Source: an uncultured delta proteobacterium
GTDB taxonomy: Bacteria > Desulfobacterota > Binatia > Binatales > Binataceae
Direction of reading: 5' to 3'
Assembly: GCA_963842085.1 (NCBI GenBank)
Contig: CAWJET010000001.1
Location: forward strand, 3,168,001-3,232,000
Length of the DNA: 64,000 bases
Part shown: positions 30,213 to 57,730 of the stretch, in pieces
Numbering within the stretch: position 1 is the stretch's first letter
Layout: each line of letters begins with the position of its first letter
The notes under the pieces: model-generated
What the model was told of the DNA's origin: nothing
Database searches by the model: none
What the model saw: only the letters and a program-made list of their open reading frames with translations
Position numbers and translations under genes: made by a program

Positions 30213-30213
30213 G

Positions 30214-34382: not shown

Positions 34383-34444
34383 GAACCCCTTCTACACCAA
34401 ATCGGGACCGCAAGATAACGACTCTTGAGGTGGATTACCTTAAC
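34383..34444 (+). promoter_or_regulatory. 62-bp conserved upstream motif, copy 1
   Basis: gaaccccttctacaccaaatcgggaccgcaagataacgactcttgaggtggattaccttaac. Confidence 0.8.
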
Positions 34445-34756
34445 TTCCCTACCATGCAAGGAGACAAACAACTGTCGTGCAACCACTTCGCTACGTCGGC
34501 TCTGCGTATGAAACTATACCGGGAGCGAAAGACGGTTCGTGCGTTGCAGGCAGCGCGTGAACTCATGCGCGGAGAGCCGGACTATGAACGGCTTTTCGCG
34601 CGAATCTGGCAAACCTCGCTCGCCCAAAGCGAGGTTGTCAGAGGCGAGACGGCGGCCGTTGCCCTCCCCCCGACGGCCGCCGTCAAAGCCAGAGTTTCGC
34701 GCTTGCTTAACCAGGCGCAAGCGCTGAACTTCAGTAGGCCAAAGAGGAGAAGTGAG

Positions 34757-34942
34757 ATGAGAGCAACTCCGCAAGGAATGGTCCGCGATCCTCGGACCGG
34801 CGAAGTGCACATGCCACACAAGGCGCTCTCAATTATACGGACCATGGAGAATCTCGACCGCACGCTGATCAAAATAAAATGGCAGGCGGGCGCTGAATCG
34901 GTTCTCCTTCCCGACGACATCGATTGGTATGAAGGCAGGTGA
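34757..34942 (+). CDS. Small hypothetical protein (61 aa)
   Basis: SD GAGGAG before ATG; MRATPQGMVRDPRTGEV... Confidence 0.55.
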   Translation: MRATPQGMVRDPRTGEVHMPHKALSIIRTMENLDRTLIKIKWQAGAESVLLPDDIDWYEGR

Positions 34943-34946
34943 GCCA

Positions 34947-35444
34947 ATGGCGAATACTATTCCCCAATTCAAGGTGACAGATCCGGCCGATTACGAGCTC
35001 TCATTTCGATCCGACGCCGTTCTGCCCGCGCAGTTCTTTCACGAGCGGCAAGGCGGCGGAGCGCTCAAGCCATTCTCGCGCCTTATGCACGCAATTCTGA
35101 TCGATGCAGTGCGATGCTATCAGATGAATTTCGACGCTCGCCGCCCGTCGAAGAAGCAGCAATTTTCGGAAGCCCGGGGCTGGCTTTTTCATGACGAGGA
35201 CAGTGGACCTTTCTCGTTCCGTAAGGTGTGCGACGCGTTGGAAATCGATCCGGATCATGTCCGCCGTGGTCTCATTAGTTGGAAGGTAAAAGGACTCGCT
35301 GGCGAAAAGGTAGCTGCGATCAGGCGTTCGCCAGTCCCTATAGCTGGCCGCATTTCCCAACCACGGTCCGGCGAGCCACGCCCCGACCTCGTCCGCCAAT
35401 CGGGCGAGAAACGCAACGGTCAAGACTCAATTGAACCAGATTAG
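34947..35444 (+). CDS. Hypothetical protein, paralog of 57731-58186
   Basis: RLM.AIL.DAV..YQ...F.EA..WLF....FSF..VCD.L.IDP.H.R..L..W shared with the paralog. Confidence 0.8.
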   Translation: MANTIPQFKVTDPADYELSFRSDAVLPAQFFHERQGGGALKPFSRLMHAILIDAVRCYQMNFDARRPSKKQQFSEARGWLFHDEDSGPFSFRKVCDALEIDPDHVRRGLISWKVKGLAGEKVAAIRRSPVPIAGRISQPRSGEPRPDLVRQSGEKRNGQDSIEPD

Positions 35445-35916
35445 GTTTACAGGGCTAGCGCTCGCCGCGATCGCACTTGCGGGATGCTCCGACCAGACTC
35501 TTACGGCGAGCCGCGAACAGCCGCGCTGCGAGCTTATGGTTTCGGATATCTGCTCAATGGCTATGCAGACGCGGATGCTTGAAGGAGTGGTGAATGCCAG
35601 CGATACCTCGAAACCCGACGAAGCACATCTGGAGGCATTCGTAATCCCGCTGTTACTCGCAAACGGACGCCCCGCCGCGATAGTTGACTGCTACGTAAAC
35701 ACCAATATGCACATGTTTTCGTTAGTTCATTCTGAGCTCTCAATTCCCGCTCGATCGAAAGACGCGATTGACTATCTTCGCAATCAGCACTTATGTGCCG
35801 ACCAGGGATCCTATCCGGAGGACAAGCACACTCGCTTCGAGACGGCGTCAAGATTTCCATCTTCTAGAGGCCCAGCCGTAGCGGGTGTCTTAGATGAGAG
35901 ACGTTACTCACAGTGA
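35431..35916 (+). CDS. Putative lipoprotein
   Basis: TTG start, lipobox LAGC, four further Cys. Confidence 0.65.
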   Translation: MNQIRFTGLALAAIALAGCSDQTLTASREQPRCELMVSDICSMAMQTRMLEGVVNASDTSKPDEAHLEAFVIPLLLANGRPAAIVDCYVNTNMHMFSLVHSELSIPARSKDAIDYLRNQHLCADQGSYPEDKHTRFETASRFPSSRGPAVAGVLDERRYSQ

Positions 35917-35956
35917 ACCGACGCGCATACTCGTCCCGTCGAAACCCGGACCCGGA

Positions 35957-36799
35957 ATGGTAGTTCTTATGTTCAGCAACCGAAACTCCCGATCTCAGCT
36001 GGCACTACTTGCCCTGGCTATCTTGCTGCTCCTGCTGCTGCGGATTGGGGGTAACGCAATCGCGGGCGGAACTGAGGAACAAGTTTGTGATGTCGGCGCG
36101 GACTATTCCCTCGCGGTCGAAGACTATGCAGAGACGATTCGTCGTCACGTCGAAGCCCTGCGAGAGCATCCGGACAACGCGCTCGCCCATTATCATCTGG
36201 GATTTGCCCTGGGGATGCTTGGCGAAAGGATGGCGGAGATCAAAGAATATCAGCGAGCCGCAGCGCTTGGGTTGAGAAATTGGGACTTATTCCTGAACTT
36301 GGGGCTGGCTCAGCTCGAGAATGGCGACCTCGACGCAGCGGCGGACAGTCTGCGAAGGGCGGTTCTCCTCGGTGAAAAACACTCTGAATCACATTTCAAC
36401 CTCGCGCTCGTAGATCAGCGGCGTGGAATGCTGGCGGATGCGGAGCAAGAAACACTCGCGTCGCTGCAGTTGAATCCCAGGCAAGCGGACGCGCGCAACC
36501 TCCTGGGCGTGATCTACGCCCAGGAGGGAAAGACTGTCCGCGCGTCGCTGGTGTGGCGTCAGCTCGTGCGCGACGTGCCGGACTATGAGCCAGCGCGCAC
36601 TAATCTGACAATTCTGGGCAGCCAAAAAGAGGTTGCTCTTGGCGAGGCGGCGGCCGTTGCCCTCCCCACCCCAGCGGCCCCCGTCAAAGCCCAAAAAAAT
36701 GAGCACAAAACGACACTCGCGGACATGCAAAATACGCCTGAGCCCGAGATCCGCGAGACAACCGGAGGTGAAAACCGTGGGCGCATTAGTTCAAATTGA
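35957..36799 (+). CDS. Exported TPR-repeat protein
   Basis: Hydrophobic signal; HPDNALAHYHLG, NLGLA, HFNLAL, ARNLLGVIYA; start uncertain. Confidence 0.85.
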   Translation: MVVLMFSNRNSRSQLALLALAILLLLLLRIGGNAIAGGTEEQVCDVGADYSLAVEDYAETIRRHVEALREHPDNALAHYHLGFALGMLGERMAEIKEYQRAAALGLRNWDLFLNLGLAQLENGDLDAAADSLRRAVLLGEKHSESHFNLALVDQRRGMLADAEQETLASLQLNPRQADARNLLGVIYAQEGKTVRASLVWRQLVRDVPDYEPARTNLTILGSQKEVALGEAAAVALPTPAAPVKAQKNEHKTTLADMQNTPEPEIRETTGGENRGRISSN

Positions 36800-37115
36800 G
36801 TCCTCGCGCTTCGCATCACTCAAGGCGATCGTAGTGCCGCCACGACCTTGGATCGTGCCGGTTAGCCCGGTTCACGTTCGCGAACCACGTGAGTTTCCTG
36901 AGGCGTCCATACCTCCAGCGCTTCCTATGACAATCCGCGACGAAATGCTGGAATTTTACGCGTTCGTATTCTGTCAGGGCGGCTTTCGCCAAGTGGGTAT
37001 GACCTTCGAACAATTCCTGCTTGTCGCCGCTGCAATCAAGCCGGCGGATCTGCCGGCGACCCGAGAGGAAACACGGACTCGGACGTTTGAACTCATCCCA
37101 CTCGATGCCGCATGA
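36777..37115 (+). CDS. Hypothetical protein
   Basis: SD GGAGGTG before GTG; TIRDEMLEFYAFVFCQGGF...MTFEQFL. Confidence 0.6.
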   Translation: MGALVQIESSRFASLKAIVVPPRPWIVPVSPVHVREPREFPEASIPPALPMTIRDEMLEFYAFVFCQGGFRQVGMTFEQFLLVAAAIKPADLPATREETRTRTFELIPLDAA

Positions 37116-37138
37116 GCCGACTATAGGAAATTCCTACG

Positions 37139-37630
37139 ATGAGCACTGGACTGCACAGCTTCAACAACGGCTCCAGCAGCAGAGGCGGCGTTGCTTGTTC
37201 TGAGCGATGCGAGTTGTCCAGGATACAGACAGCCGCACTCTACGCGATGCTATATTGGACGGCGATTGCATTGGGTATCTGGGCAGGATTGAAGGTATCG
37301 GCCCGGCCTGCGCACAGCATTACATCTGTTGTGCGCCGAACCGGACCGCTTTCATGCCGCAGTGTGAGAGAGATCGTCGCTGGGGCTCCTGTGCCGGCCG
37401 ATTACATACCGATCGGCCTTCTTGAAATCGACGACAGTTGCTTCGCCATCCTTGCTAAGCAAGCTGGGCCTTTGCCCGGGAAGGACACAGTGTCGGGCGG
37501 CGGCTCTGCAGACGTGTTTGATCGCCAAGGGCATCTGGTCCGGCGCTACATCGCCACCGAGCATACCAACAACTCATGGGAACTCACGGAACTGATAGCA
37601 CTACCGTCCGCAAGCGCGACCGGACTATAG
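37139..37630 (+). CDS. Hypothetical membrane-anchored protein
   Basis: 163-aa ORF with one TM segment, inside a same-strand ORF run. Confidence 0.55.
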   Translation: MSTGLHSFNNGSSSRGGVACSERCELSRIQTAALYAMLYWTAIALGIWAGLKVSARPAHSITSVVRRTGPLSCRSVREIVAGAPVPADYIPIGLLEIDDSCFAILAKQAGPLPGKDTVSGGGSADVFDRQGHLVRRYIATEHTNNSWELTELIALPSASATGL

Positions 37631-37643
37631 GAGCTTCCTTACT

Positions 37644-37916
37644 ATGAGCACCGAACTTCTCAATTTCAAGAGCGGCTCCAGAGTATGGGTGTGGGATTCG
37701 ACTTGGTTGCCAGCGATCGTCGTTCACCGTGCCCAGACCGATTGCTTGTTGGTCAGGCTCGCGCATGGAGTTACTTTCAGCGTACCCCCTGCCGTTCTCC
37801 GGCCGCGCGACCCCGCTTGCCGAGGCGGCGACGTCCCTTCAGCAGATACGCGTCACTGGATCACAATTGGACACCAACAAAGAGGAGCTAAAGAACATGA
37901 ACCGCGAAGAGTGTAG
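37644..37916 (+). CDS. Small hypothetical protein (possible SH3-like barrel)
   Basis: SD AGGAG; G.RVWVW...W.PA.VV....LLVRL pattern. Confidence 0.5.
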   Translation: MSTELLNFKSGSRVWVWDSTWLPAIVVHRAQTDCLLVRLAHGVTFSVPPAVLRPRDPACRGGDVPSADTRHWITIGHQQRGAKEHEPRRV

Positions 37917-38094: not shown

Positions 38095-38120
38095 TGTCCT
38101 GAGTCCTTGAATTCCTTATT

Positions 38121-39659: not shown

Positions 39660-39745
39660 TTTGGTCAAACTGTCTGATGGAGACGCACTGCTTCGCGCCA
39701 ACATCGTCTTTTGCCTCGAGTTTCTCGACCCCACATCTCCAATAG

Positions 39746-39807
39746 GAACCCTTTTTACACCGAAACAGGACTTCAAGATAACGACTCTGAACCCGAATTA
39801 CCTTTAC
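39746..39807 (+). promoter_or_regulatory. 62-bp conserved upstream motif, copy 2 (before xfp)
   Basis: gaaccctttttacaccgaaacaggacttcaagataacgactctgaacccgaattacctttac. Confidence 0.85.
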
Positions 39808-39886
39808 CTTTGCTACGGAACCACGAGAGAATGTCATTCAAAGCACTGATAATCAACGGGTCCGTGACCCAAGGAGATTATTAACC

Positions 39887-42331
39887 ATGGCCACGCTCGC
39901 GAGAACGTCTGAGACGGTTCGCGCTGATGAAAACATCTCCGCGTATGGTAAGGCTCGCTCGACGGTTAAGGGAACGCCGCTCAGTCCCGATGAATTACGC
40001 AAGATCGACGCATACTGGCGAGCCACCCTGTATTTGAGCCTGGGGATGCTCTATCTGAAGGAAAATCCCTTGCTGCGCGAACCGCTAAAGCTCGAGCAAA
40101 CCAAACCGCGCCTGCTGGGCCACTGGGGCTCGGACGCCGGGCAGAGCTTCACCTACATTCACTTTAACAGGTTGATAAAAAAGTATGACCTCAGTGCGAT
40201 CTATGTCTCTGGCCCCGGACACGGCGCGCCTGCTGTATTGTCGAACGCATACCTTGAGGGAACGTACTCCGAAATCTATCCCGAAAAGAGTGAAGATCTT
40301 GCCGGTATGCAGCGCTTCTTCAAGCAGTTCAGCTTTCCGGGCGGTATCGGCAGCCATGCGACTCCCGAAACGCCTGGCAGTATCCACGAGGGCGGAGAAC
40401 TCGGCTACAGCATCTCGCACGCCTACGGGACGGTCTACGACCATCCAGACCTGATCACGCTCGTTATGGTGGGTGACGGCGAGTCCGAGACCGGCCCGCT
40501 CGCGACAAGCTGGCATAGCAACAAGTTTCTCAACCCTATAGTTGATGGCGCGGTGCTGCCGGTCCTACACTTGAACGGCTACAAGATCAACAATCCCACC
40601 CTACTGGCTCGAATCAGCCACGAAGAGCTGGAGGCGCTGTTCGTCGGATACGGATACACGCCTTGCTTCGTCGAGGGCAGCGATCCGCAGAGCATGCACC
40701 AGGCGATGGCTGCGACCATGGAGCATTGCGTACTCGAGATTCGCAAAATCCAGGACGAAGCGAGGCGGACCGGGAAGGCGACCCGGCCGCGATGGCCGAT
40801 GATCGTCTTGCGCAGCCCCAAGGGGTGGACAGCGCCGCGGCAGGTCGATGAGCACTACCTGGAGGGATTCTGGCGAGCGCATCAGATCCCGATTACCGAC
40901 ATCGCTACGAATCCAAAACATCTGAAAATCCTTGAAAGCTGGATGCGTAGTTACAAGCCCGAAGAGCTCTTCGACGACGAAGGTCGGTTGATCGCCGAGT
41001 TGAAGGCCTTGGCTCCCAAAGGAAATCGGCGGATGAGTGCAAACCCGATCGCTAATGGCGGTCTGGTTCGCAAGCCGCTCGATATGCCCGATTTTCGGAA
41101 TTCGGCAGTTGAGGTCAAAAAGCCGGGCGCGACTTCAGCCGGGAACGTTCCAACCCTCGGCAATTACCTGCGGGAAGTGATGCGGCGGAACATGGATCGC
41201 TTCCGTGTGTTCGGTCCGGATGAAACGCAATCCAACCGACTCGAGGCAATTTACGAAGTGGCAAAGAAGGTCTGGCTAGGAGAGTACTTCCCCGAAGACG
41301 CTGACGGCGGCGAGCTTGCTCCAAACGGACGCGTGATGGAGATGCTGAGCGAGCATACCGTCGAAGGATGGCTGGAAGGTTACCTCTTGAGCGGGCGGCA
41401 CGGCTTACTCAATAGCTACGAGCCGTTCATACATGTAGTCGACTCGATGTTTAACCAGCACGCCAAGTGGCTGGAAAAGTGCAACGAACTCCCGTGGCGG
41501 GCCAAGGTGTCGTCACTGAACCTGCTGATAACCGCTTTGGTCTGGCGGCAGGATCACAATGGCTTCACGCATCAAGACCCCGGTTTCCTCGACGTGGTCG
41601 CCAACAAGAGTCCCAGTGTCGTCCGCATCTACCTGCCGCCAGACGCTAACTGTCTGCTATCGGTCGCCGATCACTGCTTGCAGAGCGTCAATTACGTGAA
41701 CGTCATCGTCGCCGACAAACAAGTGCATCTGCAGTACCTGGACATGGAAGCGGCGATCGAGCACTGCACTAAGGGCGTCGGCATCTGGAATTGGGCCAGC
41801 AACGATCAGGGCGCGGAGCCCGATGTAGTCATGGCGAGTTGTGGCGATTGCCCAACAATGGAGTCGTTGGCCGCTACGGCTCTGCTTCGCCAGCACATAC
41901 CCGACGTGAAGGTGAGATTCGTCAACGTGGTCGATCTGGCTCGACTGGTTCCCAGCAGCGAACATCCTCATGGTATGACGGATCGTGAGTTCGAGGCTAT
42001 CTTCACACCGAACAAGCCGGTCATCTTCAACTTTCATTCCTATCCATGGTTGATTCACCGCCTTACGTATCGCCGTCCTGGCCAACACAACATTCACGTG
42101 CGCGGCTACAAGGAAAAGGGAAACATCAACACGCCGCTGGAATTGGCTATCCAGAACCAAACCGATCGCTTCAGCATCGCAATTGACGCAATCGATCGAA
42201 TGCCGCGTTTCCAGGTCACGGGAGCCGGGGTGCGCGAGGCGCTGCTCAATCATCAGATAGCAGCCAAGAGCTACGCTCACGAGTTCGGCATCGATCAGCA
42301 GGACATCACGAATTGGCAGTGGCCATTCTGA
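39887..42331 (+). CDS. xfp: Xylulose-5-P/fructose-6-P phosphoketolase
   Basis: [39 protein letters not shown]. Confidence 0.97.
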
Positions 42332-42351
42332 CGATCGAAGGAACTGTAGTC

Positions 42352-42939
42352 ATGCTGCCTGTCGTTTACCTCGCAAGGCACGGTGAGACTGCATGGAGTC
42401 TCTCGGGCCAGCACACTGGACTTACCGATTTGCCATTGACCGATCGCGGCGAAAGCAATGCACGACGTCTTGGTGAACGTTTGACCGGACTGAGTTTCAG
42501 CAAAGTCTTTACCAGTCCATTGCAGCGCGCGAGGAGGACTTGTGAATTGGCGGGCTTTGGTCGCCGAGCCGAAGTCGATCGCGACCTGCTTGAATGGAAT
42601 TACGGCGAATACGAAGGCCGCCGCACAGAAGAAATCCATGCAGAGCGCCCGGACTGGCAACTGTTTCGCGACGGCTGTCCCGGAGGCGAGTCACCGGGGC
42701 AGGTGGGCGAACGTGCTGATCGAGTGGTGAGGCGAGTGCGCGAGATTCAAGGTAACGTGCTGATTTTCTCAAGCGGTCACATTTTGCTAGTACTCGCCGC
42801 GCGCTGGCTAGGGCTGGAACCAATCGCCGGTAAGTACTTCCTGCTGAGCACTGCGAGCTTGAGCGCGCTTGGCTACGAATACAACTTGTCCCGGCCAGTA
42901 ATACAACTGTGGAACGACACAAATCACGTGAGCTCCTGA
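42352..42939 (+). CDS. Histidine phosphatase family protein
   Basis: RHGETAWS, SPLQRA, EWNYGEYEG. Confidence 0.92.
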   Translation: MLPVVYLARHGETAWSLSGQHTGLTDLPLTDRGESNARRLGERLTGLSFSKVFTSPLQRARRTCELAGFGRRAEVDRDLLEWNYGEYEGRRTEEIHAERPDWQLFRDGCPGGESPGQVGERADRVVRRVREIQGNVLIFSSGHILLVLAARWLGLEPIAGKYFLLSTASLSALGYEYNLSRPVIQLWNDTNHVSS

Positions 42940-42959
42940 TCGATAACAGGAAGAAAACG

Positions 42960-45455
42960 ATGGCAGCATCTCCCAAGACACCAACCTTCGATCTTATTTC
43001 GAAACTAATCGCGCAATACGGATGCGGCCCGATTAAATTCAGCGGCACCGATGAAGCGCTTTACGAGCGCCATCTGCTGTTCGACAACATCGTCGATGCC
43101 AGCGATGTCACGTTGCGGGAGCGATATGAAGCCGTCGCCCGATCGGTGCGGGACGTCCTCTCTCAGCGATGGATACATACTGAGCAAACTTACGAGCGCG
43201 AGAATCCCAAACGCGTTTACTATCTCTCGATAGAATTCCTACTGGGTCGCTCGCTTGCGAACAACATCAATAATCTCCTGCTCGATCCTATCGCGGCGCA
43301 CCTTATCAAGGAGAAGAACGTCGACTGGCTAGGTCTGCTCGAGCAGGAGCCTGACCCTGGTCTGGGTAATGGTGGGCTTGGGCGTTTGGCGGCCTGCTTT
43401 TTGGATTCGATGGCGACGATGCAACTGCCCGCGATGGGCTACGGGCTGCGTTACGAATACGGTATGTTTAAGCAGTCCATTAAAGATGGCTGGCAGGAAG
43501 AGCGGCCGGACCATTGGCTGCGCCACCCCGATCCTTGGCAGATATTGCGGCCACGGGAAAGCGTAGAAGTGAAGCTGAACCGCTCCTTCCAGATAGCCGG
43601 CGGAAGCTTGCACGCCCAGCCCGGAAAGCCCACCAAGTTATTCGGCATCCCTCGCGATCTCCCAATAGTCGGATATGGCGGCCGAACCATCAATTCACTG
43701 CGACTGTGGGCCGCGGCCGCACCGGATTACTTCGACTTCCAGGAATTCAGCCACGGCGATTTCGTCGGTGCACTTGCTGAGAAGCTGGCGGCCGAAACGC
43801 TGACGAGAGTCCTGTATCCCGACGATTCGACCAGCTTGGGGCAGAGCTTGCGCTTCGTGCAGGAGTATTTTCTCGTGGCATGCTCGCTCGCCGATATTGT
43901 ACGGCGGTTTCGTCGCAGCAACCCAGATTGGAGCACGCTTCCCGACAAGGTTGCGATCCAGCTCAACGATACGCATCCAACGATGGCGGTGTCCGAGTTG
44001 ATGCGGATTTTGCTCGACGAGGCGAAGCTCGGATGGGACGAAGCGTGGGACCTAACGCGAAGAACGCTGGCGTACACCAACCATACGCTGCTGCCTGAAG
44101 CACTCGAGAAATGGCCGGTTGCGTGGTTTGAGACGATGATGCCGCGGAACCTGGAGATCATTTTCGAAATCAATCGCCGGTTAGTCGATGACGTTCGCGT
44201 GCGGTTCCCAAGCGACGAAGGTCGGATTGCGCGCGTGAGCCTGATCGAGGAAGGCCCAATCAAGCACGTGCGTATGGCCAACCTGGCCATCGTCGGATCG
44301 CACAGTACGAACGGTGTAGCCGCGATTCACTCCGAGTTGCTACGCACGACCACGGTCAAAGACCTGGCCGAGATGTTTCCAGAACGCTTCAACAATAAGA
44401 CCAACGGTGTCACGCCGCGCCGCTGGCTGCTGCTGGCCAATCCGACGCTCGCTCGCACAATCAGCGACGCGATCGGTGAGGGCTGGATTACCGATCTCAG
44501 CCAACTGAGCAAGCTTAGGCCGCTTGCCGATAACAAAGCCTTTCGCGACAACTTCCGCGTAGCAACTCGCGAGACGAAGGCCCGCTTTGCCAACTGGCTC
44601 AAATCGAAGACCGGACAAACGATAGATCCGGACACCATTTTTGATTGCCAAGTCAAGCGCATCCACGAATACAAGCGTCAACTGCTGAACGCGCTGCGAA
44701 TCGTCATTCTCTACAATCGCGTCAGGCAAACCCCCAACCTTGAGATGTCTCCGCGAACATTCCTGTTTTCTGGTAAGGCGGCGCCTGCCTACCATCTGGC
44801 CAAGCTCATCATAAAGTTCATCAACAATCTGGCCAGTACGATCGATGGCGATCCCACGGTGCGCGGCCAGCTCAAGGTACTCTTCATCCCTGAGTACGAC
44901 GTAACACTTGCCGAGCAGCTGATTCCTGCCAGTGATGTATCCAATCAGATTTCAACCGCGGGCTATGAGGCGAGCGGCACAAGCAACATGAAGTTCATGA
45001 TGAACGGGGCGTTGACTATCGGCACGCGCGACGGAGCAACCATCGAGATGGCGCAGGAGGCGGGCGAGGAAAATTTCTTCTTGTTCGGGTTGACTGCGCA
45101 ACAAGTCGCGGATAGCCGGGGCTGGTACGACCCGCATTGGCACTATGAGCACGAGCCTGCGACGCGAGCGGCGCTGGACCTGATCTTTTCGGACCACTTC
45201 AGCCGCCACGAACCCGGCATCTTCGAACCGCTGCGCGACACGCTCCTGACACATGGTGACTACTACATGCATCTCGCGGATCTCACGTCCTATCTGGACG
45301 CCGACCGCAGGCTGATTGAACTATACGCGAAACCCGAAGAATGGACGCGTAAGGCGATCCTGAATGTCGCCGGCTCTGGAAAATTCTCGAGCGACCGCAC
45401 CATTGCGCAGTATGCAGCCGAGATCTGGAACGCCAAGCCGTGTCGCGTCGGTTAG
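42960..45455 (+). CDS. glgP: Glycogen/alpha-glucan phosphorylase
   Basis: LGNGGLGRLAACF, QLNDTHP, KRIHEYKRQ, EASGTSNMK. Confidence 0.97.
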   Translation: MAASPKTPTFDLISKLIAQYGCGPIKFSGTDEALYERHLLFDNIVDASDVTLRERYEAVARSVRDVLSQRWIHTEQTYERENPKRVYYLSIEFLLGRSLANNINNLLLDPIAAHLIKEKNVDWLGLLEQEPDPGLGNGGLGRLAACFLDSMATMQLPAMGYGLRYEYGMFKQSIKDGWQEERPDHWLRHPDPWQILRPRESVEVKLNRSFQIAGGSLHAQPGKPTKLFGIPRDLPIVGYGGRTINSLRLWAAAAPDYFDFQEFSHGDFVGALAEKLAAETLTRVLYPDDSTSLGQSLRFVQEYFLVACSLADIVRRFRRSNPDWSTLPDKVAIQLNDTHPTMAVSELMRILLDEAKLGWDEAWDLTRRTLAYTNHTLLPEALEKWPVAWFETMMPRNLEIIFEINRRLVDDVRVRFPSDEGRIARVSLIEEGPIKHVRMANLAIVGSHSTNGVAAIHSELLRTTTVKDLAEMFPERFNNKTNGVTPRRWLLLANPTLARTISDAIGEGWITDLSQLSKLRPLADNKAFRDNFRVATRETKARFANWLKSKTGQTIDPDTIFDCQVKRIHEYKRQLLNALRIVILYNRVRQTPNLEMSPRTFLFSGKAAPAYHLAKLIIKFINNLASTIDGDPTVRGQLKVLFIPEYDVTLAEQLIPASDVSNQISTAGYEASGTSNMKFMMNGALTIGTRDGATIEMAQEAGEENFFLFGLTAQQVADSRGWYDPHWHYEHEPATRAALDLIFSDHFSRHEPGIFEPLRDTLLTHGDYYMHLADLTSYLDADRRLIELYAKPEEWTRKAILNVAGSGKFSSDRTIAQYAAEIWNAKPCRVG

Positions 45456-45486
45456 TGTCGATTGCAGGTTCTTCGGAGAGCAAACA

Positions 45487-48209: not shown

Positions 48210-48264
48210 TCAAGACGATTGACTCGCTCGCTTTTTTTCGACCGACCATTCGAGGAGAACTAGC

Positions 48265-49182
48265 ATGACGCGCGGATATGATCTGCCACTGTACGTCCTG
48301 CCTTTCGATCATCGAGCATCTTTTGAGACGGGGATGTTCGGATGGAAAGGCGAATTGACCCCCGAACAGACCGCTCAGATCGCCGAGGCAAAACGGGTGA
48401 TCTACGACGGTTTGAAGGCGGCAATCGCCTCCGGAGTGCCGAAGCAGAAAGCAGCTATCCTGGTGGACGAGCAATTCGGGGCAGCCATTCTGCGCGACGC
48501 CAAGGCGGACGGCTACATGATCGCGTGTCCGGTTGAGAAAAGCGGACAGGACGAGTTCGATTTCGAGTACGGCGAAGCCTTCCACAACCACATCGAGGCC
48601 TTCCAGCCAACATTCTGCAAAGTCCTGGTGCGATACAACCCGGAGGGCGACCAAGCTCTGAACCGGAGACAAACGAAGCGTCTCACGCGGTTGTCCTATT
48701 ACCTGCATAACTCGAAACCTAGACTTTTCATGTTTGAGCTCCTGGTTCCGGCAGAGAAAGCACAACTGGAAAAGGTCAAGGGCGACAAGAATGCGTACGA
48801 CCTGGAGATTCGTCCTCGGCTAATGGTCCAGACCATCGAAGAGCTGCAGGACGCGCATGTCGAACCAGACGTTTGGAAGATCGAAGGCCTTGACCGCAGA
48901 GAGGATTGCGAGCGCGTTGTGGCGGCGGCTCGCTACGGGGGCCGCGACAAAGTCGGTTGCATCGTTCTGGGTCGCGGCGAGAACGACAAGAATGTGCGCG
49001 AATGGCTGACAACCGCGGCAACCGTGCCGGGCTTCATCGGATTCGCCGTCGGTCGCACGGACTTCTGGGAACCTCTGGTCGGGTGGCGGGAGAAGAAAAC
49101 CACGCGCGAAGCTGCGGTTGATGAAGTTGCCCGGCGGTATCGTGAATTCGTCGACATTTTTGAGAAAGCACGCGCCCAATAG
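48265..49182 (+). CDS. DUF2090 protein (aldolase-like TIM barrel, IolC C-terminal-like)
   Basis: LPFDHR, LVDEQFG, KVLVRYNP, PDVWKIEG, VLGRG, GFAVGRT. Confidence 0.88.
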   Translation: MTRGYDLPLYVLPFDHRASFETGMFGWKGELTPEQTAQIAEAKRVIYDGLKAAIASGVPKQKAAILVDEQFGAAILRDAKADGYMIACPVEKSGQDEFDFEYGEAFHNHIEAFQPTFCKVLVRYNPEGDQALNRRQTKRLTRLSYYLHNSKPRLFMFELLVPAEKAQLEKVKGDKNAYDLEIRPRLMVQTIEELQDAHVEPDVWKIEGLDRREDCERVVAAARYGGRDKVGCIVLGRGENDKNVREWLTTAATVPGFIGFAVGRTDFWEPLVGWREKKTTREAAVDEVARRYREFVDIFEKARAQ

Positions 49183-49252
49183 ACGCCGAATAACCAATTG
49201 CGCCGTGCCGGGTGAGCAGTCGCATCGAGAATTCGGTGGAGGCAAACGTCAA

Positions 49253-50413
49253 ATGGCTTCTCACGTCATACTATGCGTGAACAGCGGATCCTCTTCGCTC
49301 AAATTCGCACTCTACCGAATCGGTCATGGTGAAGAACTCCTGCTCGCGCAAGGTGCGGCCGAGCTCAACGATGGGCAAATCACTCGGCTTTGGATTCACA
49401 GCGCGCACGAGAAAGTCGAGAAAACGGGCAGCGAAATTTCTTCTGCGTCAACACCGCTGCACGCACTTGCCGTCGAGTTGAAGCGGTTGCGGCTCCCGCA
49501 TCCCGACGCAGTCGGTCATAGACTGGTACACGGCGGCCGGCACCATGGCAGCCCGGAACGGATCACTGATACGCTCTTCAATGAACTGGGCAGTTTGATC
49601 CCCTTTGCACCGCTGCATCTACCCAACGAGATTGCCGGCATTGAGGCGGTCACTTCGAACTTCCCGAGCCTGCCGCAGGTCGCCTGCTTCGACACTGCTT
49701 TTCACCGCTCGATGCCGGAAGTTGCGCAGCGCTTCGCATTGCCGTGTGCGCTCTGGAACGAAGGCATTCGCCGCTACGGGTTTCACGGAATTTCCTACGA
49801 ATACATCGTGCGGACTTTGGGTGTTAATCTGCCCTCCCGCCTAATTATCGCTCATCTCGGTAACGGCGCGAGCATGGCGGCAGTGAAAGACGGAAACCCG
49901 CTCGACACCACGATGGGATTCACTCCGGCTGGGGGCTTCATGATGGGAACGCGCAGCGGAGATCTGGACCCCGGAATCTTTCTCTACCTATTAAACCAGA
50001 GGCATTTCGACGCACACAAACTCGCCGATCTTGTGAACCATAAATCCGGATTACTCGGCGTATCAGGCATCTCCGATATGAGGATGCTGCTCGAACGAAG
50101 AGATACCGCACCAGATGCTGCGCTGGCGGTGCACATGGTTTGCTATCAGCTCCGAAAGCAGATCGGCGCCTTCACCGCCGCGCTGGGCGGACTCGATCTT
50201 CTGGTTTTTACGGGCGGCATTGGCGAACGAGCCGCTCCTGTGCGATGGGAGACGTGTAATGGTTTGGAGCACCTCGGCATCAACCTCGAACGCGAACGAA
50301 ATCAGGCCAACGCCGACACGATTAGCAGCGATGACAGCCGCTGTCTCGTTCGCGTAATTCCAACGAATGAGGACCTGATGATAGCCCGTCATACCTACGA
50401 ACTTGTCTTCTAG
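49253..50413 (+). CDS. ackA: Acetate/propionate kinase
   Basis: NSGSSSLKF, GHRLVHGG, DTAFH, YGFHG, HLGNGAS, FTGGIGE, PTNE. Confidence 0.95.
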   Translation: MASHVILCVNSGSSSLKFALYRIGHGEELLLAQGAAELNDGQITRLWIHSAHEKVEKTGSEISSASTPLHALAVELKRLRLPHPDAVGHRLVHGGRHHGSPERITDTLFNELGSLIPFAPLHLPNEIAGIEAVTSNFPSLPQVACFDTAFHRSMPEVAQRFALPCALWNEGIRRYGFHGISYEYIVRTLGVNLPSRLIIAHLGNGASMAAVKDGNPLDTTMGFTPAGGFMMGTRSGDLDPGIFLYLLNQRHFDAHKLADLVNHKSGLLGVSGISDMRMLLERRDTAPDAALAVHMVCYQLRKQIGAFTAALGGLDLLVFTGGIGERAAPVRWETCNGLEHLGINLERERNQANADTISSDDSRCLVRVIPTNEDLMIARHTYELVF

Positions 50414-50426
50414 GCGCGGTAGATCC

Positions 50427-52508
50427 ATGGCTAACTGGTCGCAAATCGAAGGTTCGCCACAGCCTCTTGGCGCTACTTGGCTCAAAGAGGAAAAGAGCTA
50501 CAACTTCGCGCTGTACTCCAGGCATGCTACCGGCGTGACACTCTTGCTGTACACGGCGCGCGATTTGGTTAACCCGGTTCTTCGTATCTCGCTCAATTAT
50601 TTGACTCACAAATCAGGACGAATCTCGCATTGCCGCCTCAAAGCGGACGAGGTCGCCAATGCCTCTTACTACGCGTACTCGGTCGAAGGTCCGAGTAGCG
50701 CACTGGGGGAGGTCCACTTTTTCGATCCGGACAAAGTCCTTCTCGATCCTTACGCAAGGTCGCTCTTCTTTCCACCGGATTTTCGGCGTAGTGCTTCGAT
50801 CGGACGGGGATCGAATGCCGGAAGAACGCCTCTTGGCGCGCTGCCAGTCAACATTCCAGAGTTTGACTGGGGCGGCGAATCCAACCCGTTTGACTGGGGC
50901 GGCGAATCCAACTCCCGCCACACGTCAGACACCATCATCTATGAAATGCACGTCAGAGGTTTTACCAACAGAGACAATTCCGGAGTGTCCGCGGACAAGC
51001 GAGGAACATTTGCAGGAGTTGTTGAGAAAATTCCCTATCTCAAAGAGCTTGGAGTTACCGCGCTCGAGTTGATGCCGGTATTTCAGTACGACCCGGACGA
51101 AGGCAATTACTGGGGATACATGCCGCTGAACTTTTTCTCTCCGCATGAGGCTTACGCGGCGAATTTACCCGTCGCAGAAGCTGCAGCCGACTTCAAGGCG
51201 ATGGTGAAAGAACTCCATTGCGCCGGGATCGAAGTAATTCTGGACGTGGTCTACAACCACACCACCGAAGCAGGCGCTGACGGGCCTACCTATAGCTATC
51301 GGGGCATTTGCAATAGCACCTACTACCTTCTCGACGAAAGCATGACGCACTATCGGAACGATACCGGGACAGGCAATGTCTTGCGAGCGGCACATCCGAC
51401 GGTGCGCAAGATGATAATCGACAGTCTCCGTTTCTGGATACTTGAGATGCATGTCGACGGTTTCAGATTCGATCTCGCTTCCATCTTCAGCCGTAATGTC
51501 GACGGCTCGATCAACCTGAAAGACCCTCCATTGATTTCCGAGATAACGGGCGGCGCAGAATATGCTGATGTCCGGCTGATCGCCGAGGCATGGGATCCGG
51601 CCAGTTACGAACTAGGTCGCAGCTTCCCCGGTCAAACATGGAGCCAGTGGAATGGCAGGTTTCGAGATGATGTTCGCGAATTCGTCAAAAGCGATCCCGG
51701 AAAAGTTGGCGACCTCATGACCCGGCTCTATGGCAGCAGCGATTTGTTTCCGGATGATCTCGACGACGCCTACCATCCTGCTCAAAGCATTAACTACGTC
51801 ACTTCGCACGACGGCTTTTGTCTCTATGATCTGGTCGCGTACAACGACAAGCATAATTTGGCTAATGGCCAGAACAATACTGATGGGACCGACAACAATC
51901 TGAGCTGGAACTGCGGATGGGAGGGCGATGAGAATGTGCCAGCGGAAGTGATGCGATTGCGAAAGCAGCAAATCAAGAATTTCTTTGCGATTTTGATGGT
52001 CTCGAACGGAACCCCGATGTTCTGTGCCGGCGATGAATTCATGAATACGCAGCGCGGCAACAACAATCCCTGGAACCAGGATAACGAAACGACCTGGCTC
52101 GACTGGGATTTGCTCGAAAAGAACGGCGACATGTTCCGCTTCTTCAAAGGAATGATCGCTTTTCGCAAAGCGCACCCATCTTTGGCTCGCAGCCGATTCT
52201 GGCGTGATGACGTTAGCTGGTACGGTGTGAACGGTCAGGTGGATCTTGGCTATCTGTCGCATAGCCTCGCGTTCTGTTTGCATGGTTCTTCGCAACAGGA
52301 TCGAGACATCTACGTGATGATAAACGCATACTGGCAGGATCTCAATTTCAAAATACAAGAGGGAAAGGCCGGCGACTGGAACTGTGTAGCAGATACAGGG
52401 ATGTCGAGCCCGTCCGATTTTTTCGAGGTCGGGGAGCAAAAGGCTCTGACCTCATTGAGCTATGAGGTCAAAGCCAGATCGGTTGTAGTTCTGCTGCGCA
52501 CGGCCTGA
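50427..52508 (+). CDS. glgX: Glycogen debranching enzyme/isoamylase (GH13)
   Basis: YEMHVRGFT, NYWGY, DVVYNHT, DGFRFDLAS, AEAWD, HDGF. Confidence 0.95.
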   Translation: MANWSQIEGSPQPLGATWLKEEKSYNFALYSRHATGVTLLLYTARDLVNPVLRISLNYLTHKSGRISHCRLKADEVANASYYAYSVEGPSSALGEVHFFDPDKVLLDPYARSLFFPPDFRRSASIGRGSNAGRTPLGALPVNIPEFDWGGESNPFDWGGESNSRHTSDTIIYEMHVRGFTNRDNSGVSADKRGTFAGVVEKIPYLKELGVTALELMPVFQYDPDEGNYWGYMPLNFFSPHEAYAANLPVAEAAADFKAMVKELHCAGIEVILDVVYNHTTEAGADGPTYSYRGICNSTYYLLDESMTHYRNDTGTGNVLRAAHPTVRKMIIDSLRFWILEMHVDGFRFDLASIFSRNVDGSINLKDPPLISEITGGAEYADVRLIAEAWDPASYELGRSFPGQTWSQWNGRFRDDVREFVKSDPGKVGDLMTRLYGSSDLFPDDLDDAYHPAQSINYVTSHDGFCLYDLVAYNDKHNLANGQNNTDGTDNNLSWNCGWEGDENVPAEVMRLRKQQIKNFFAILMVSNGTPMFCAGDEFMNTQRGNNNPWNQDNETTWLDWDLLEKNGDMFRFFKGMIAFRKAHPSLARSRFWRDDVSWYGVNGQVDLGYLSHSLAFCLHGSSQQDRDIYVMINAYWQDLNFKIQEGKAGDWNCVADTGMSSPSDFFEVGEQKALTSLSYEVKARSVVVLLRTA
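50861..50912 (+). repeat. In-frame 27-bp tandem duplication in glgX
   Basis: GTTTGACTGGGGCGGCGAATCCAAC occurs twice with a 27-bp period (FDWGGESNP FDWGGESNS). Confidence 0.95.
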
Positions 52509-52573
52509 GCTCGCAGCGCACAGAGCCTTTTATCTCGCTTTGAGAGTCACTGGCGAGTGATTCCCGCAGCATT

Positions 52574-53101: not shown

Positions 53102-53185
53102 GACTCCCAACTTATGGTCGTTTTCTGGACAGTTTCCCGTGTTGATCGTTAGGCTCGTCGAGCGTCATACAGAAGTGCGCTAATT

Positions 53186-53455
53186 TTACTTCGATGCCTC
53201 GACGTAAAGTGTGATCCGTCCTATACCTTTGGAAACTGATCGCGATGGTTAGCCGGACGGATTGTATCCAAGGAAGTACTCGACTGCGACGACAGTGTAA
53301 GAATCCCAATCTCTCGGACCCTTAAGGGGGATGAAAATGCGCTCTCCCGTCCGCGGAACGAACTTGATTTCCGTCAAGGGTGCTTTTGCGACCTTCTCTT
53401 TCCTGGCGAGATCATACAGCTCAAGGTAGCTCTCTTGTTCTTTGTTTGACGCCAT
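53186..53455 (-). pseudogene. Small hypothetical protein with in-frame TAA at 53249-53251; paralog of 63657-63899
   Basis: After the stop the frame continues PSRSVSKGIGRITLYVEASK*, matching the paralog end RVTLYVEESK*. Confidence 0.8.
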
Positions 53456-53582
53456 ACCACTGTTCTCCGAGTTTGCCCAAGTCCGGGGCTCTTAGCAACG
53501 GTATATTTCTAGCTGCCGCCCTGGGCCGGCGTATTTCGAAAAAAAGCGAAAAATTGCGGATTTCTATGAAATAACATTCAGG

Positions 53583-56500
53583 TCAAGGAAGAGATGATCT
53601 TTTGCCTACTATTTTGACTCGTTTACTCGTAGTCCTTGAGCGCGCACCATTAGTAGGTTCGCCGGTCTCGAGCAATTTGCGAACCGACGGTGCCGAGAGG
53701 AAAATCTTACGAAGCGGCTCGTCAGCCGGCATGGAATCAGCCAGTTTGAGAATCGTTGCTCGGCTAAGCTCGCGGTGATGTTCGGCCTCCTTGCTCTTTT
53801 CGCTGCCTCGACAAAGCTCGGCAGCTGTTGCGTGGACTCTCCAGGCAGCCAGCGGAACCTCGAAGCCTTGCATCGTTGACAAGGCATTCGTGATGCATTC
53901 GTGCGCGCGCTCGAGATCGCGCTGCGCCATCGCGACACGTGCGTTCGCCTCCCAAGCCACCGCCTGCCAAGTGCGCTCGGCAGTCACGAGAGTGACTTCG
54001 AGAAACCTCTCCGCCTCGGTTCGAGCCTGCTTCAAATCCCCCTTCGCCAGCCATAGTTCTGTAAGACTCGACTGGAGCTGCATGCGCCAGTACCAGTCTA
54101 CTATGACCATCTGCTGGTTCATCGCGTTTCGAGCAGTCGACAGATGCTCGAGCGCGAGATCATAATTTCCCAAACCTAATTCTGCTGAGCCTTGTATGAT
54201 CAGACTGATGCGAGCGTCCTCTGGAAGCGGGCTTGAGGAACCGGACTCCGCGCTCAGTACAGAATTTTCGGGATGAGAAAAAGACGATTCACAGATCTTC
54301 AACGCGCCCTCAAAGTCCATGGCGTGGAGATGTGCCCATGCCGGATAGAGCATCAAGGCGCTCGCGCGATACTGTTCACCATTCTTGTCCAGCATTGCGA
54401 TTCCGGATCTATATTCGCGTAAGGCTTCTCCCCACTCTCCCAAAAAGAGAAGGCTTGAGGAGCCGAAGAGCTGATATACCCAGACGGCAAGGCTCAGATT
54501 TAGATAGTTCTCTTCGACGGTCTCGAACATCTTGTTGGATACAGTCCCGGACAAGTTGCGGTGAGCATCGCGGTATTCGGAGGAAAGCCACTGTATCAAG
54601 CTGTATTGCGCCAAATGGTAGGAAAAGGTCACTGGGTCGCCGACCTCACGAATTTCATTCAGCGCAATTCGACACTCTTCCGCGTCCTGCGAATTCCATC
54701 CGCCTGCCCAAATTCGATAGAAGAAGCAGTTCATTCGGAAACTTGCCCGCAGCAGCTGAACACTCTGGCTATTGCTAAGGAGTAGAGCCCGTTCCAGTAC
54801 TTTGAGGCACCGATCGGAACTGATCCACATCAGGGGATATGCCAATCCGATCAGGGCGCGCGCCTCAACATCAATCAAGCCGAGGTGAGCGGCCCGCGAT
54901 GCCATCGCTTCATAGTTGTCAATTGCCCGACGGTCATATTCGAGAGAGTAGATCATCCCCAGCTTCTCAAGAATTTCGATCTCGCTGACCGCACGCTTCT
55001 CCTCCGGAAGTTTGCTCGATAGTTCGAGTGCGCGCTGCAAACTGGCCATAGCTTCCTGACTGGCAAAACGGTGTCTGGCGGTTTCAGCCGCGACGCGAAG
55101 ATATTTGACTGCGCGCTGCCAGTCCGAAGCCTGCTCGAAGTGATGCGCCAATTCGGGCGCTGCCTCGCTCAAACGATCCGAGAAGAGTGTTTCCATCTCC
55201 TCTCCGATCCGCTGATGCAGCCTGGCCGCACGCCCCGATGCCAGCCTGCGATAGAGAACCTCTCGATAGAGTGCATGCACAAATTCGTAGCGCGCAGAGA
55301 CGGTTCCGTCCGGCGATCGCTCCGAACCTGCCGAACGCACTATGTGATGCCGGCGTGAGAGTTCTTCGCAGAAGTCTTCAAAGTCTTCTTGATCAACACC
55401 GGCTGCCGCCGCGCAGACCCTTGCTGAGAAGGCAACTCCAGCCACGCTTGCCACGTCCAGGGCGTGCCGCTGTTCGTCTGAAAGGTTGTCAATCTGCGCT
55501 TCGATCATGCGCCGCAACTTCTCTGGCGCGGCGAGAGCGACTTGCTCCAGGGGGACCCGGAGCTTCCATGCCCCGCGCTCCTGGAAAACGAGGCCCTGCT
55601 CGGTCAGGTGGTCAAGCATCGCCACAACGAACAAGGGATTCCCCTCCGTGTGGTGATAGATCAACTTGGCCAAGCCCTCGGTAAGTTTGTCGCCCGACGA
55701 CTCCGCCTCAAGATATTCAGCGACTTCTGCTTCGCTCAGTGGCTCCAAGTTGATCTGGCGACATAGCTGATGCAGCAGCAGGTCCTGCTTCAGCGCCTTC
55801 AACGGATGTTCCGGAATCACCATGTCCACCGGTCGCTTGGTCGCGACCAGCATCAGTTTGGCCGGCGCCCGTCGGCGCGCCAGCGCCGAGATGAGATCGA
55901 CCGTCGAGGGATCCACCCACTGTAAATCCTCAAACAGCAAGAGCATGGGACTTGCCGAAGTGATGGCCTCCAGAGCATCGCCGATCTCGCGCAACATGCG
56001 CTCCCGTGTCGAGCCTAGAATCTCTCGCTGCAGCATCTCGCGCTGTTCGCGTTTCACCAACGCAGGAAACTGGACCAGCCAAGTTGGTGCCTGCGCGGCG
56101 AGTATTTGGACGACCGAGTCTCCACCGGCGCCGCGGCATAACTGACCAAGAGTTTCAAGCATCGGGTAATAGGCTTCTTTGCCGCCGTAGCCCTCGACGC
56201 ATTGGCCGCGCGCAATCCGAAGGCCCGGTGCCTCGACCGCCGCTTGGCGCTGGAACGCCTCGGCCAGCGCGGTTTTGCCGATGCCCGGCTCCCCCGTGAT
56301 GAACACGATCTGCCGCTCGCCCCTTAACGCTTTCCCAAGGCAATCGCCCAGCTCGCTCAACTCTCGTTCTCTTCCGACCAGTTTGCCTCGCGCCGGCTGT
56401 GCTGGAACGGCCTGCAGAGCAGCCGTGCCCTCGCTCACTGCAGCGATAAACCGGTATCCCCGGCGATGCAGAGTTTCGATAAAGAGAGGGTTATTCGCCT

Positions 56501-56747
56501 GGTCGCCCAGCGCGCCTCTGAGGTCGAGGACGAGCTTTTTTATGGCCTGCGGTTGAATGTGGGTGTTTGGCCACACCGCATCGAGGAGCTCATCATGCGT
56601 CACCAGACGTCCGGCTTGTTCCACCAGATGGTGCAGCACTGCGAACGCCTTGGGCGTCAACAGGATGCGCTCGTCGGCACCCTTCGTCCTGCGGCGCCAC
56701 AGACACTGGTTGACGGTGTCGAGCCGGAATGGCGGAAACTCCTTCAT
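53583..56747 (-). CDS. wHTH (OmpR/PhoB-type) - AAA/STAND ATPase - helical repeat transcriptional regulator
   Basis: LTPKAF..L..LV....L.....LLDAVW...IETLHRRGYRF; Walker A GEPGIGKT; Walker B LLFEDLQW; TEGNPLF; TPR-like C-terminus. Confidence 0.92.
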   Translation of the reverse strand: MKEFPPFRLDTVNQCLWRRRTKGADERILLTPKAFAVLHHLVEQAGRLVTHDELLDAVWPNTHIQPQAIKKLVLDLRGALGDQANNPLFIETLHRRGYRFIAAVSEGTAALQAVPAQPARGKLVGRERELSELGDCLGKALRGERQIVFITGEPGIGKTALAEAFQRQAAVEAPGLRIARGQCVEGYGGKEAYYPMLETLGQLCRGAGGDSVVQILAAQAPTWLVQFPALVKREQREMLQREILGSTRERMLREIGDALEAITSASPMLLLFEDLQWVDPSTVDLISALARRRAPAKLMLVATKRPVDMVIPEHPLKALKQDLLLHQLCRQINLEPLSEAEVAEYLEAESSGDKLTEGLAKLIYHHTEGNPLFVVAMLDHLTEQGLVFQERGAWKLRVPLEQVALAAPEKLRRMIEAQIDNLSDEQRHALDVASVAGVAFSARVCAAAAGVDQEDFEDFCEELSRRHHIVRSAGSERSPDGTVSARYEFVHALYREVLYRRLASGRAARLHQRIGEEMETLFSDRLSEAAPELAHHFEQASDWQRAVKYLRVAAETARHRFASQEAMASLQRALELSSKLPEEKRAVSEIEILEKLGMIYSLEYDRRAIDNYEAMASRAAHLGLIDVEARALIGLAYPLMWISSDRCLKVLERALLLSNSQSVQLLRASFRMNCFFYRIWAGGWNSQDAEECRIALNEIREVGDPVTFSYHLAQYSLIQWLSSEYRDAHRNLSGTVSNKMFETVEENYLNLSLAVWVYQLFGSSSLLFLGEWGEALREYRSGIAMLDKNGEQYRASALMLYPAWAHLHAMDFEGALKICESSFSHPENSVLSAESGSSSPLPEDARISLIIQGSAELGLGNYDLALEHLSTARNAMNQQMVIVDWYWRMQLQSSLTELWLAKGDLKQARTEAERFLEVTLVTAERTWQAVAWEANARVAMAQRDLERAHECITNALSTMQGFEVPLAAWRVHATAAELCRGSEKSKEAEHHRELSRATILKLADSMPADEPLRKIFLSAPSVRKLLETGEPTNGARSRTTSKRVKIVGKRSSLP

Positions 56748-56787
56748 AATCGCGCCTCGCGACTCCCAGTTTCCACGAACCGAACAG

Positions 56788-56849
56788 GAACTCTTTTTAC
56801 ACCAAAACGGGACTACAAGATAACGACTCTAAACCCGGATTACCTTTAT
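56788..56849 (+). promoter_or_regulatory. 62-bp conserved upstream motif, copy 3 (between the divergent regulators)
   Basis: gaactctttttacaccaaaacgggactacaagataacgactctaaacccggattacctttat. Confidence 0.85.
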
Positions 56850-57719: not shown

Positions 57720-57730
57720 AGGAGGATTCG

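Follow-up and report, generated by a model that had tools for sequence, protein, structure and literature searches.

A short non-coding element is present in three copies, all on the + strand, in a 64,000-nt stretch of the genome of an uncultured member of the Binataceae (contig CAWJET010000001.1, positions 3,168,001 to 3,232,000; hereafter the window). Copy 1 occupies 34362..34444 (+). Copy 2, at 39725..39807 (+), lies between a GH77 gene (38121-39659) and a phosphoketolase operon, and copy 3, at 56767..56849 (+), is found in the 156-nt divergent region between the gene for a STAND regulator and that for an RpiB-AraC fusion regulator. Judged from sequence comparison, the element is a putative cis-regulatory DNA module, selected and restricted to one lineage, that would tie three operons to one regulator locus. 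We suggest that it combines a shared promoter with a regulator-binding site, and that the STAND protein might act on it as an activator and bring three transcription units under common control; the probability of this reading is put at about one half.

The repeat and its conservation

The three copies are confirmed as a real feature of the window. They align without gaps over 83 nt, with copies 2 and 3 showing 75% and 72% identity to copy 1 in a repeat search, and 54 of the 83 columns are invariant. The 15-mer CAAGATAACGACTCT matches exactly in each copy (34411..34425, 39774..39788 and 56816..56830, all on the + strand) and has exactly three occurrences in the window. Column shuffling seldom produces an invariant run of 15 (permutation p 0.021 across 83 nt, 0.002 across 99 nt). 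With an nhmmer model trained on the three copies, E values of 1.8e-29, 1.4e-27 and 5.5e-26 are obtained for them (1.4e-27 for copy 1); the next best match in the window has E 0.48, and no fourth copy is found there with this model. The element appears A+T-rich when judged by eye, the G+C content of the window being 59.4%. A preliminary description of this DNA had placed three copies at these positions and on this strand and had noted the invariance of the 15-mer, and both observations are borne out by reading of the sequence. It had also pointed to a partial fourth match at 58897-58930 (+). That candidate reaches only E 46 with nhmmer and E 0.26 with blastn, is not significant by itself, and was left out of the copy count.

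Relatives in other genomes were sought by an exact-pattern scan with GGACNNCAAGATAACGACTCT, in which 19 bases were fixed, in one genome per species from 185,579 species. Six loci were recovered, comprising four true relatives, all in metagenome-assembled genomes (MAGs) of Binataceae type, and two chance matches. The latter (L003 and L006) have only a 21-nt core in common, located antisense within orthologous open reading frames (ORFs) of ~670 aa that resemble sigma-54 activators. Because about 4 chance matches are expected by our own estimate (19 fixed bases, 2 x 596 Gb), these two loci were excluded from all counts. Three of the true relatives (L001, L002 and L004) are orthologous to copy 3 and are flanked by a STAND ortholog (with 79%, 91% and 86% amino-acid identity, respectively) on one side and by the RpiB-AraC position on the other. 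The fourth, L005, is orthologous to copy 1 and shares a contig with L001, from which it is 18 kb distant; the part common to copy 1 and L005 begins near 34370. With the three window copies these make up a set of seven instances, and an nhmmer model built from all seven finds no further copies in the window or in the related loci retrieved. The module is oriented toward the downstream gene in every instance. Copy 3 had been described as sitting in the divergent region of the STAND gene, and the same placement is seen in all four genomes.

The core of the module is conserved beyond the neutral rate, as measured at fourfold-degenerate sites. The test was limited to the 23 core positions upstream of the fixed 19 bases (GGAAC...ACG). 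Orthologs are identical at 20-23 of these 23 positions, compared with 60-82% identity at the fourfold-degenerate sites of the STAND gene. The binomial P is 1.3e-4 for L001 against L004, 0.009 for both pairs with a neutral identity of 62%, 0.010 for copy 3 against L002, and 0.11-0.16 for the two closest pairs with L004. Over the 55 nt downstream of the core, identity falls to 27-30/55 in distant pairs. Eight positions vary, and they are the same eight among paralogs and among orthologs.

The module is non-coding, faces genes, is devoid of RNA structure and is linked to the STAND gene. A coding region or leader peptide was rejected, as no frame is shown open in all copies (one is closed in copy 1, another in copy 2 and the third in copy 3) and period-3 power has p 0.40-0.90. 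A structured RNA was ruled out by several analyses. RNAalifold on the seven sequences yields 2 pairs and no covariation; single folds of 86 nt have z-scores of -0.09, +1.12 and +1.65 on the + strand and +0.38, +0.31 and +1.23 on the - strand; and Rfam at gathering score reports two tRNAs elsewhere in the window, nothing in the four related loci, and nothing around any copy even at E<=1. The preliminary description had seen no palindrome or stem and had named Rfam and covariation as a check against a non-coding RNA. Neither the repeat search nor RNA folding detected a palindrome or stem, and the outcome of that check was likewise negative. Signs of an insertion sequence or a miniature inverted-repeat transposable element were also looked for: the copies are in the same orientation throughout, the repeat search found neither an inverted-repeat pair at any copy nor an inverted partner copy, and there is no blastn match in 72,556 plasmid or 50,697 phage records.

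The flanks of the copies, by contrast with what had been thought, are related. The stretch 34295-34329 beside copy 1 matches 56719-56753 beside copy 3 at 83%, and, read in antisense, corresponds to the opening 8 codons of the STAND gene. This relic of a STAND-type gene start (34300..34323, -) encodes MKDFPPFR, compared with MKEFPPFR in the STAND protein, and is followed by unrelated sequence. Copies 1 and 2 are also alike over about 60 nt upstream of GAAC, and copy 1 has an additional downstream block in common with the L001/L004 version of copy 3. The element had been drawn as a gapless motif of 62 bp. The absence of gaps stands, but because the flanks are related the repeat unit is about 85-125 nt in length. 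Since copy 1 retains the first 8 STAND codons in antisense, it must have arisen by duplication of the copy-3 region. We therefore suggest that the module spread by segmental duplication from the divergent region of the regulator to the front of other genes, with the 8 regulator codons carried along to copy 1.

Proposed promoter geometry and candidate regulators

The motif ends a short distance ahead of the genes. The preliminary description had given 55-80 bp to the start codon for copies 2 and 3, and the distances measured are 79 nt to ATG 39887 (copy 2) and 54 nt to GTG 56904 (copy 3). For copy 1, taking ATG 34508 as the start gives about 63 nt, a choice based on alignment with the copy-1 ortholog; the exact start is uncertain because the ortholog has ACG in place of both ATG 34454 and ATG 34508, with an ATG five codons upstream of the latter.

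A promoter-operator role at the level of DNA is the interpretation that survives, and it agrees with where the copies lie and how they are oriented. Two promoter readings fit within the element. In the first (P2), the -10 is a TAnnnT hexamer that is found 15-21 nt after the 15-mer in 7/7 instances, as TAACTT, TACCTT, TATTTT, TAATTT or TAGTTT, with a register constant to within one nucleotide. The candidate -10 hexamers inferred for the window are TAACTT at 34441..34446 in copy 1, the second TACCTT at 39805..39810 in copy 2, and TATTTT at 56847..56852 in copy 3 (all +). It had been proposed that the motif ends in TACCTT as the -10-like hexamer (34436-34441, the first TACCTT at 39799-39804, and 56841-56846 in copies 1, 2 and 3). 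This hexamer is retained in only 5/7 instances, being CTCCTT in L001 and CTCTTT in L004; it is the adjacent or overlapping TAnnnT that is kept in 7/7. Under P2, the 15-mer would finish on the -35 position and the remaining conserved blocks would fall at about -70 to -45, which is the layout of an activator-dependent promoter. A sigma-70 promoter scan (two hexamers separated by 16-18 nt, with A2 and T6 required in the -10) gives 0 sites at each copy.

The regulator divergent from copy 3 (53583..56747, -; 1054 aa) was analysed against Pfam, NCBIfam and the PDB. It contains an OmpR-type winged helix-turn-helix (wHTH) domain (Trans_reg_C, residues 26-100, E 3.8e-15), an AAA_16 NTPase domain (residues 122-300, E 8.5e-25) and TPR repeats, and matches the NTPase region of a TOMM kinase/cyclase model in NCBIfam. 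Neither a BTAD domain nor a LuxR-type (GerE) HTH is found by the Pfam scan, and there is no room for a BTAD because AAA_16 begins at residue 122. Sequence matches in the PDB cover the wHTH only, the best of them being response-regulator DNA-binding domains, CadC, ToxR and PhoB. Within the protein, the wHTH ranks first or nearly first in conservation (85-92% vs 70-94% elsewhere).

P2 with the STAND protein as activator is the geometry that we favour, since the STAND gene adjoins a copy in 4/4 genomes and its wHTH is so well conserved. The protein might oligomerise upon a signal, so that several wHTH domains fill an asymmetric site of ~45 bp, with the GAAC, TACACC, GGAC and CAAGATAAC blocks at about -70 to -33 and the -35 position falling on the last bases (ACGACT/CGACTC) of the invariant 15-mer. 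The oligomer would recruit RNA polymerase to a promoter that lacks a good -35, and the polymerase would take the TAnnnT hexamer as its -10. Three units might be controlled in this way, namely a cluster of unknown genes running on to malQ, a glycogen-to-phosphoketolase-to-acetate operon, and the RpiB-AraC operon, and the STAND gene might be autoregulated via the divergent copy 3. The logic may be likened to that of MalT at mal promoters and of AfsR/SARP at afsS. The putative targets are functionally consistent with one another: genes of alpha-glucan metabolism (GH77, phosphorylase, phosphoglucomutase, isoamylase) are located downstream of or beside the copies, and L005 follows a branching-enzyme-like gene.

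A second candidate for the binding protein is the RpiB-AraC fusion regulator (56904..57719, +; 271 aa, with GTG 56904 as its start; Pfam, NCBIfam), the product of the first gene downstream of copy 3. This protein might read the promoter-operator as a sugar-phosphate-sensing dimer, whose two double-HTH domains would span two asymmetric half-sites of ~20 bp, the proximal one at -35 as in AraC/XylS class II promoters. An RpiB-like sensor domain suits a target operon of the pentose-phosphate/phosphoketolase type; the asymmetric, non-palindromic conserved stretch of ~45 bp is about two AraC-type sites long, with GGAAC...TACAC and GGGAC...ATAAC 22 nt apart; and the RpiB-AraC gene directly follows copy 3 in three of the four genomes. 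Nevertheless, we regard this protein as an unlikely binder. In L002 (4094-4288 of the reverse complement) its gene is down to about 66 codons through an in-frame deletion in which residues ~32-246, and with them both domains, have been lost, yet the 44-nt core is identical to copy 3 at 44/44 positions and the STAND gene is intact at its 91% identity. It is because of this unchanged core that the STAND protein is favoured over RpiB-AraC. Furthermore, the 22-nt self-similarity is not above that of shuffled sequences.

Less likely still, in our view, is a core promoter that is self-sufficient and has no dedicated activator. Here (P1, read by eye) the -35 would be T(T/C)TACA and the -10 GATAAC, transcription would start near the end of the 15-mer, and a housekeeping or alternative sigma factor would have to accept an unusual -10. 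In copy 3 this comprises TTTACA, a 17-nt spacer and GATAAC at 56796..56824 (+). The same geometry is present in 7/7 instances, always with a spacer of 17 nt, and the two best-conserved blocks of the element coincide exactly with the P1 hexamer positions. The sigma-70 scan refuses P1 for want of a final T in the second hexamer, a base that the two best intergenic sigma-70-like sites in the window do keep (TTGACA-17-TAACAT at 1744 and TTGACA-17-CATACT at 58727). A bare promoter needs neither the conserved spacer bases CC.AA.C.GGAC..CAA nor the conserved GAAC block upstream. There is no sigma factor gene among the ORFs scanned in the window, and the element does not fit the spacing rules of extracytoplasmic function (ECF) or sigma-54 promoters when compared by eye with the consensus of each. 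Judged in the same manner, ECF-, sigma-54-, sigma-28- and general-stress-type spacing, and a short run in common with the core of phage T7-type promoters, were all rejected for a misfit in spacing or conserved positions. The proposal of an activator-dependent promoter, made in the preliminary description, stands in so far as the element lacks coding capacity, works at the level of DNA and lies promoter-proximal, facing a gene in 7/7 instances; it is weakened by the 5/7 retention of TACCTT and by the second promoter reading inside the motif in 7/7.

The element might instead function as RNA, as an unstructured segment of the 5' leader bound by a protein or small RNA. Its position on the coding strand, 54-79 nt ahead of the downstream start codon at copies 2 and 3 (and about 63 nt for copy 1, with the inferred start), would suit such a role, as would a GGA triplet in an A-rich context in 7/7 instances. 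However, there is no conserved pairing or covariation, folding is no better than for shuffled sequences, and Rfam gives no match at E<=1. A leader would also need a promoter further upstream, and copy 3 is only about 40 nt from the divergent STAND start codon. We therefore consider a role as RNA very improbable. It is hardly credible that the copies have no function and simply remain from segmental duplication, or that they derive from a mobile element. Points in favour are the relic of the STAND gene start in copy 1, the recombination-mosaic nature of the region and a recombinase island at 21.5-24.7 kb; against this, the core exceeds the fourfold-site rate in orthologs, conservation is uneven within the window, and the searches for inverted repeats, plasmids and phages described above were all negative.

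Several points weigh against the STAND protein as activator of a shared promoter. P1 and P2 fit equally well on paper. The invariance of the 19 pattern bases in the MAG loci is by construction, because the search demanded them exactly. Only 7 instances are available, from 4 genomes and 3 paralog classes, and the orthologs are not independent. With the exact pattern, the copy-3 type is found in 3/3 MAGs, the copy-1 type in 1/3 and the copy-2 type in 0/3. The L004 contig ends before the copy-2 region; on the L001/L005 and L002 contigs there is no exact copy-2 type match, though part of the operon is present in L001, and on the L002 contig there is no exact copy-1 type match. This suggests that the core is not invariant everywhere, or that those copies are absent. 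The deletion in the L002 RpiB-AraC gene could be recent, or an assembly fault. Finally, known OmpR and AraC sites, like those of SARPs, are direct repeats with a phasing of 10-11 or 21-22 bp. In the module, self-match at shifts of 10, 11, 21 and 22 is not above shuffles, and no period of 10-12 or 22 nt is significant in the pattern of conserved and variable positions (p 0.10-0.73). Tandem half-sites were considered in the form of AC dinucleotides 11 nt apart (GGAAC, TACAC, GGGAC, ATAAC), but the region is AC-rich and neither self-similarity nor periodicity is significant, so that they are retained as a lead only.

Comparison with known systems

MalT of Escherichia coli is a STAND ATPase activator, and mal promoters lack a -35. 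The system described here appears similar in having a STAND-type NTPase with a repeat-rich sensor region that is encoded next to its putative targets, and in that these targets belong to alpha-glucan catabolism (phosphorylase, 4-alpha-glucanotransferase, debranching enzyme). The asymmetric site, upstream of and abutting a poor -35, would also be alike. The differences lie in the DNA-binding domain, which is an N-terminal OmpR-type wHTH here and a C-terminal LuxR-type HTH in MalT; in the site, which is one conserved stretch of ~45 bp with no detectable repeated short box; and in the operon, which runs into the phosphoketolase/acetate kinase route, in the phylum Binatota. In function MalT is the closest analogue, although its DNA-binding domain keeps the STAND protein out of the MalT class.

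AfsR is the closest counterpart in domain order. Large SARPs such as AfsR have the same order of wHTH, NOD-type NTPase and TPR, and an activator site that overlaps the -35 of a promoter with poor hexamers, as described in PMC10936776. The STAND protein differs in having no BTAD, with only about 20 residues between the wHTH and the NTPase, and AfsR is absent from its PDB matches at E<=0.01. The same paper describes the sites of SARPs as direct repeats spaced by 11 or 22 bp, of which the 3' one is 8 bp away from the -10 (PMC10936776); such repeats are undetectable in the module.

Two further families show partial likeness. AraC/XylS class II sites are asymmetric and non-palindromic, about 2 x 20 bp in length, and end at -35, and an AraC-family gene lies beside copy 3; in contrast, the gene is deleted in L002 with the site unchanged, and there is no significant repeat at 21-22 nt. 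The pho box of PhoB/OmpR regulators is comparable in that the wHTH is of the OmpR family and the site replaces the -35. In contrast, the STAND protein has no receiver domain, so that activation would have to come via its NTPase/TPR part, and periodic half-sites of 10-11 bp are not detectable. The 15-mer CAAGATAACGACTCT was not found in a text search of the literature covering ~8.4 million texts, and searches on Binatia and phosphoketolase and on a fusion of RpiB and AraC gave nothing relevant among the matches listed.

If the favoured reading is correct, the motif marks a small regulon in a phylum without a cultured member or a mapped promoter. This regulon would comprise glycogen breakdown via phosphoketolase and acetate kinase, a sugar-phosphate-sensing regulator, and two lineage-specific sets of unknown genes, and the motif would offer a defined site on DNA at which to study a STAND-type transcription factor whose architecture is unstudied. 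The relic of the regulator's start codons at copy 1 shows that the module was copied from the divergent region of the regulator to the front of other genes. General principles would be unchanged, since shared operators before co-regulated operons are routine. A bolder proposal, which we hold to be doubtful, is that STAND proteins with a wHTH, an NTPase and TPRs but no BTAD form a distinct class of NLR-like transcription factors. Such proteins would bind one long asymmetric operator of ~45 bp free of tandem repeats, and would govern glycogen mobilisation via a phosphoketolase (bifid-shunt-like) route in uncultured Binatia; their regulon would have grown by copy-and-paste of a promoter-operator cassette of ~125 bp that dragged along the first codons of the regulator.

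Neighbouring genes and rearrangements

The operon downstream of copy 2 (39887..52508, +; Pfam, NCBIfam) encodes a phosphoketolase, an alpha-glucan phosphorylase, a phosphoglucomutase, a transaldolase, a DUF2090 aldolase-like protein, an acetate kinase and an isoamylase-type debranching enzyme. A stretch within its beginning forms an inverted repeat of 163 nt with 76% complementarity (30213-30375, -, and 39935-40097, +). The ORF at 30073-30489 (-) contains a fragment of the phosphoketolase N-terminal domain and is therefore a relic second copy of the first gene of the operon; it adjoins a transposase-like ORF with an HTH_32 domain (29343-30158).

Downstream of copy 1 there are seven ORFs (34508..37916, +; Pfam, NCBIfam), six of which have no Pfam family and only weak NCBIfam matches below the cut-off, and one of which has TPR repeats. 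They are followed by the GH77 4-alpha-glucanotransferase gene (malQ, 38121-39659). The ORF at 34929-35444 in this cluster is a paralog of one downstream of copy 3 (57626-58186), and in a protein atlas both fall into Binatota hypothetical clusters only. The cluster also displays internal paralogy, with 34519-34587 resembling 36520-36588 and 34624-34681 resembling 36622-36679 (75-78% over 58-69 nt), and its first ORF resembles a stretch that spans the end of the TPR ORF and the ORF at 36633-37115.

Copy 1 is preceded by a TetR gene (33489-34157, -). In L005 (4139-7987, -) the place of the TetR gene before the module is taken by a branching-enzyme-like gene (CBM48, alpha-amylase, alpha-amylase_C), a GFO/IDH/MocA oxidoreductase and a HAD hydrolase. 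The TetR-side promoter and the start of a short ORF at 34.1-34.3 kb recur as a second copy at 58.6-58.87 kb (90% over 58 nt), a stretch that is conserved in L002. The duplicated promoter has a TTGACA...TGTCAA-type operator and is located at 34186-34299 and 58700-58869 in the window and at 5144-5414 of the reverse complement in L002. The duplication also takes in the beginning of a short hydrophobic ORF (MRSRLIIVSVSIIVATIAGVWVGKRS, 58816-58896 in the second copy), which the copy-1 module interrupts after 8 codons at 34.3 kb. In L002 the matching short-ORF start is found ~40 nt before similarity to the membrane-fusion protein of an RND pump begins.

Sequence exchange might also have affected the copy-3 region of the related genomes. 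L001 and L004 are identical at 22/22 positions just upstream of the core, and their RpiB-AraC proteins are each 80% identical to that of the window. No other two STAND genes in the set differ as much as theirs (76% amino-acid identity, 60% at fourfold sites), and the upstream identity despite this divergence suggests recombination across the intergenic region.

On the far side of the STAND gene, a strong hairpin of 14 pairs followed by a T run (52442-52475, -) is located just downstream of a zinc-ribbon-like ORF (52574-53110). This ORF follows the STAND gene, and the hairpin is the likely terminator of the minus-strand unit. Elsewhere in the window, the region 20878-24695 resembles an integrated element, with a tRNA gene (20878-20964) followed by ORFs with recombinase, resolvase and DUF2924 domains (-). 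Within it, a serine recombinase is apparently split into two ORFs, 21498-22355 and 23591-24175.

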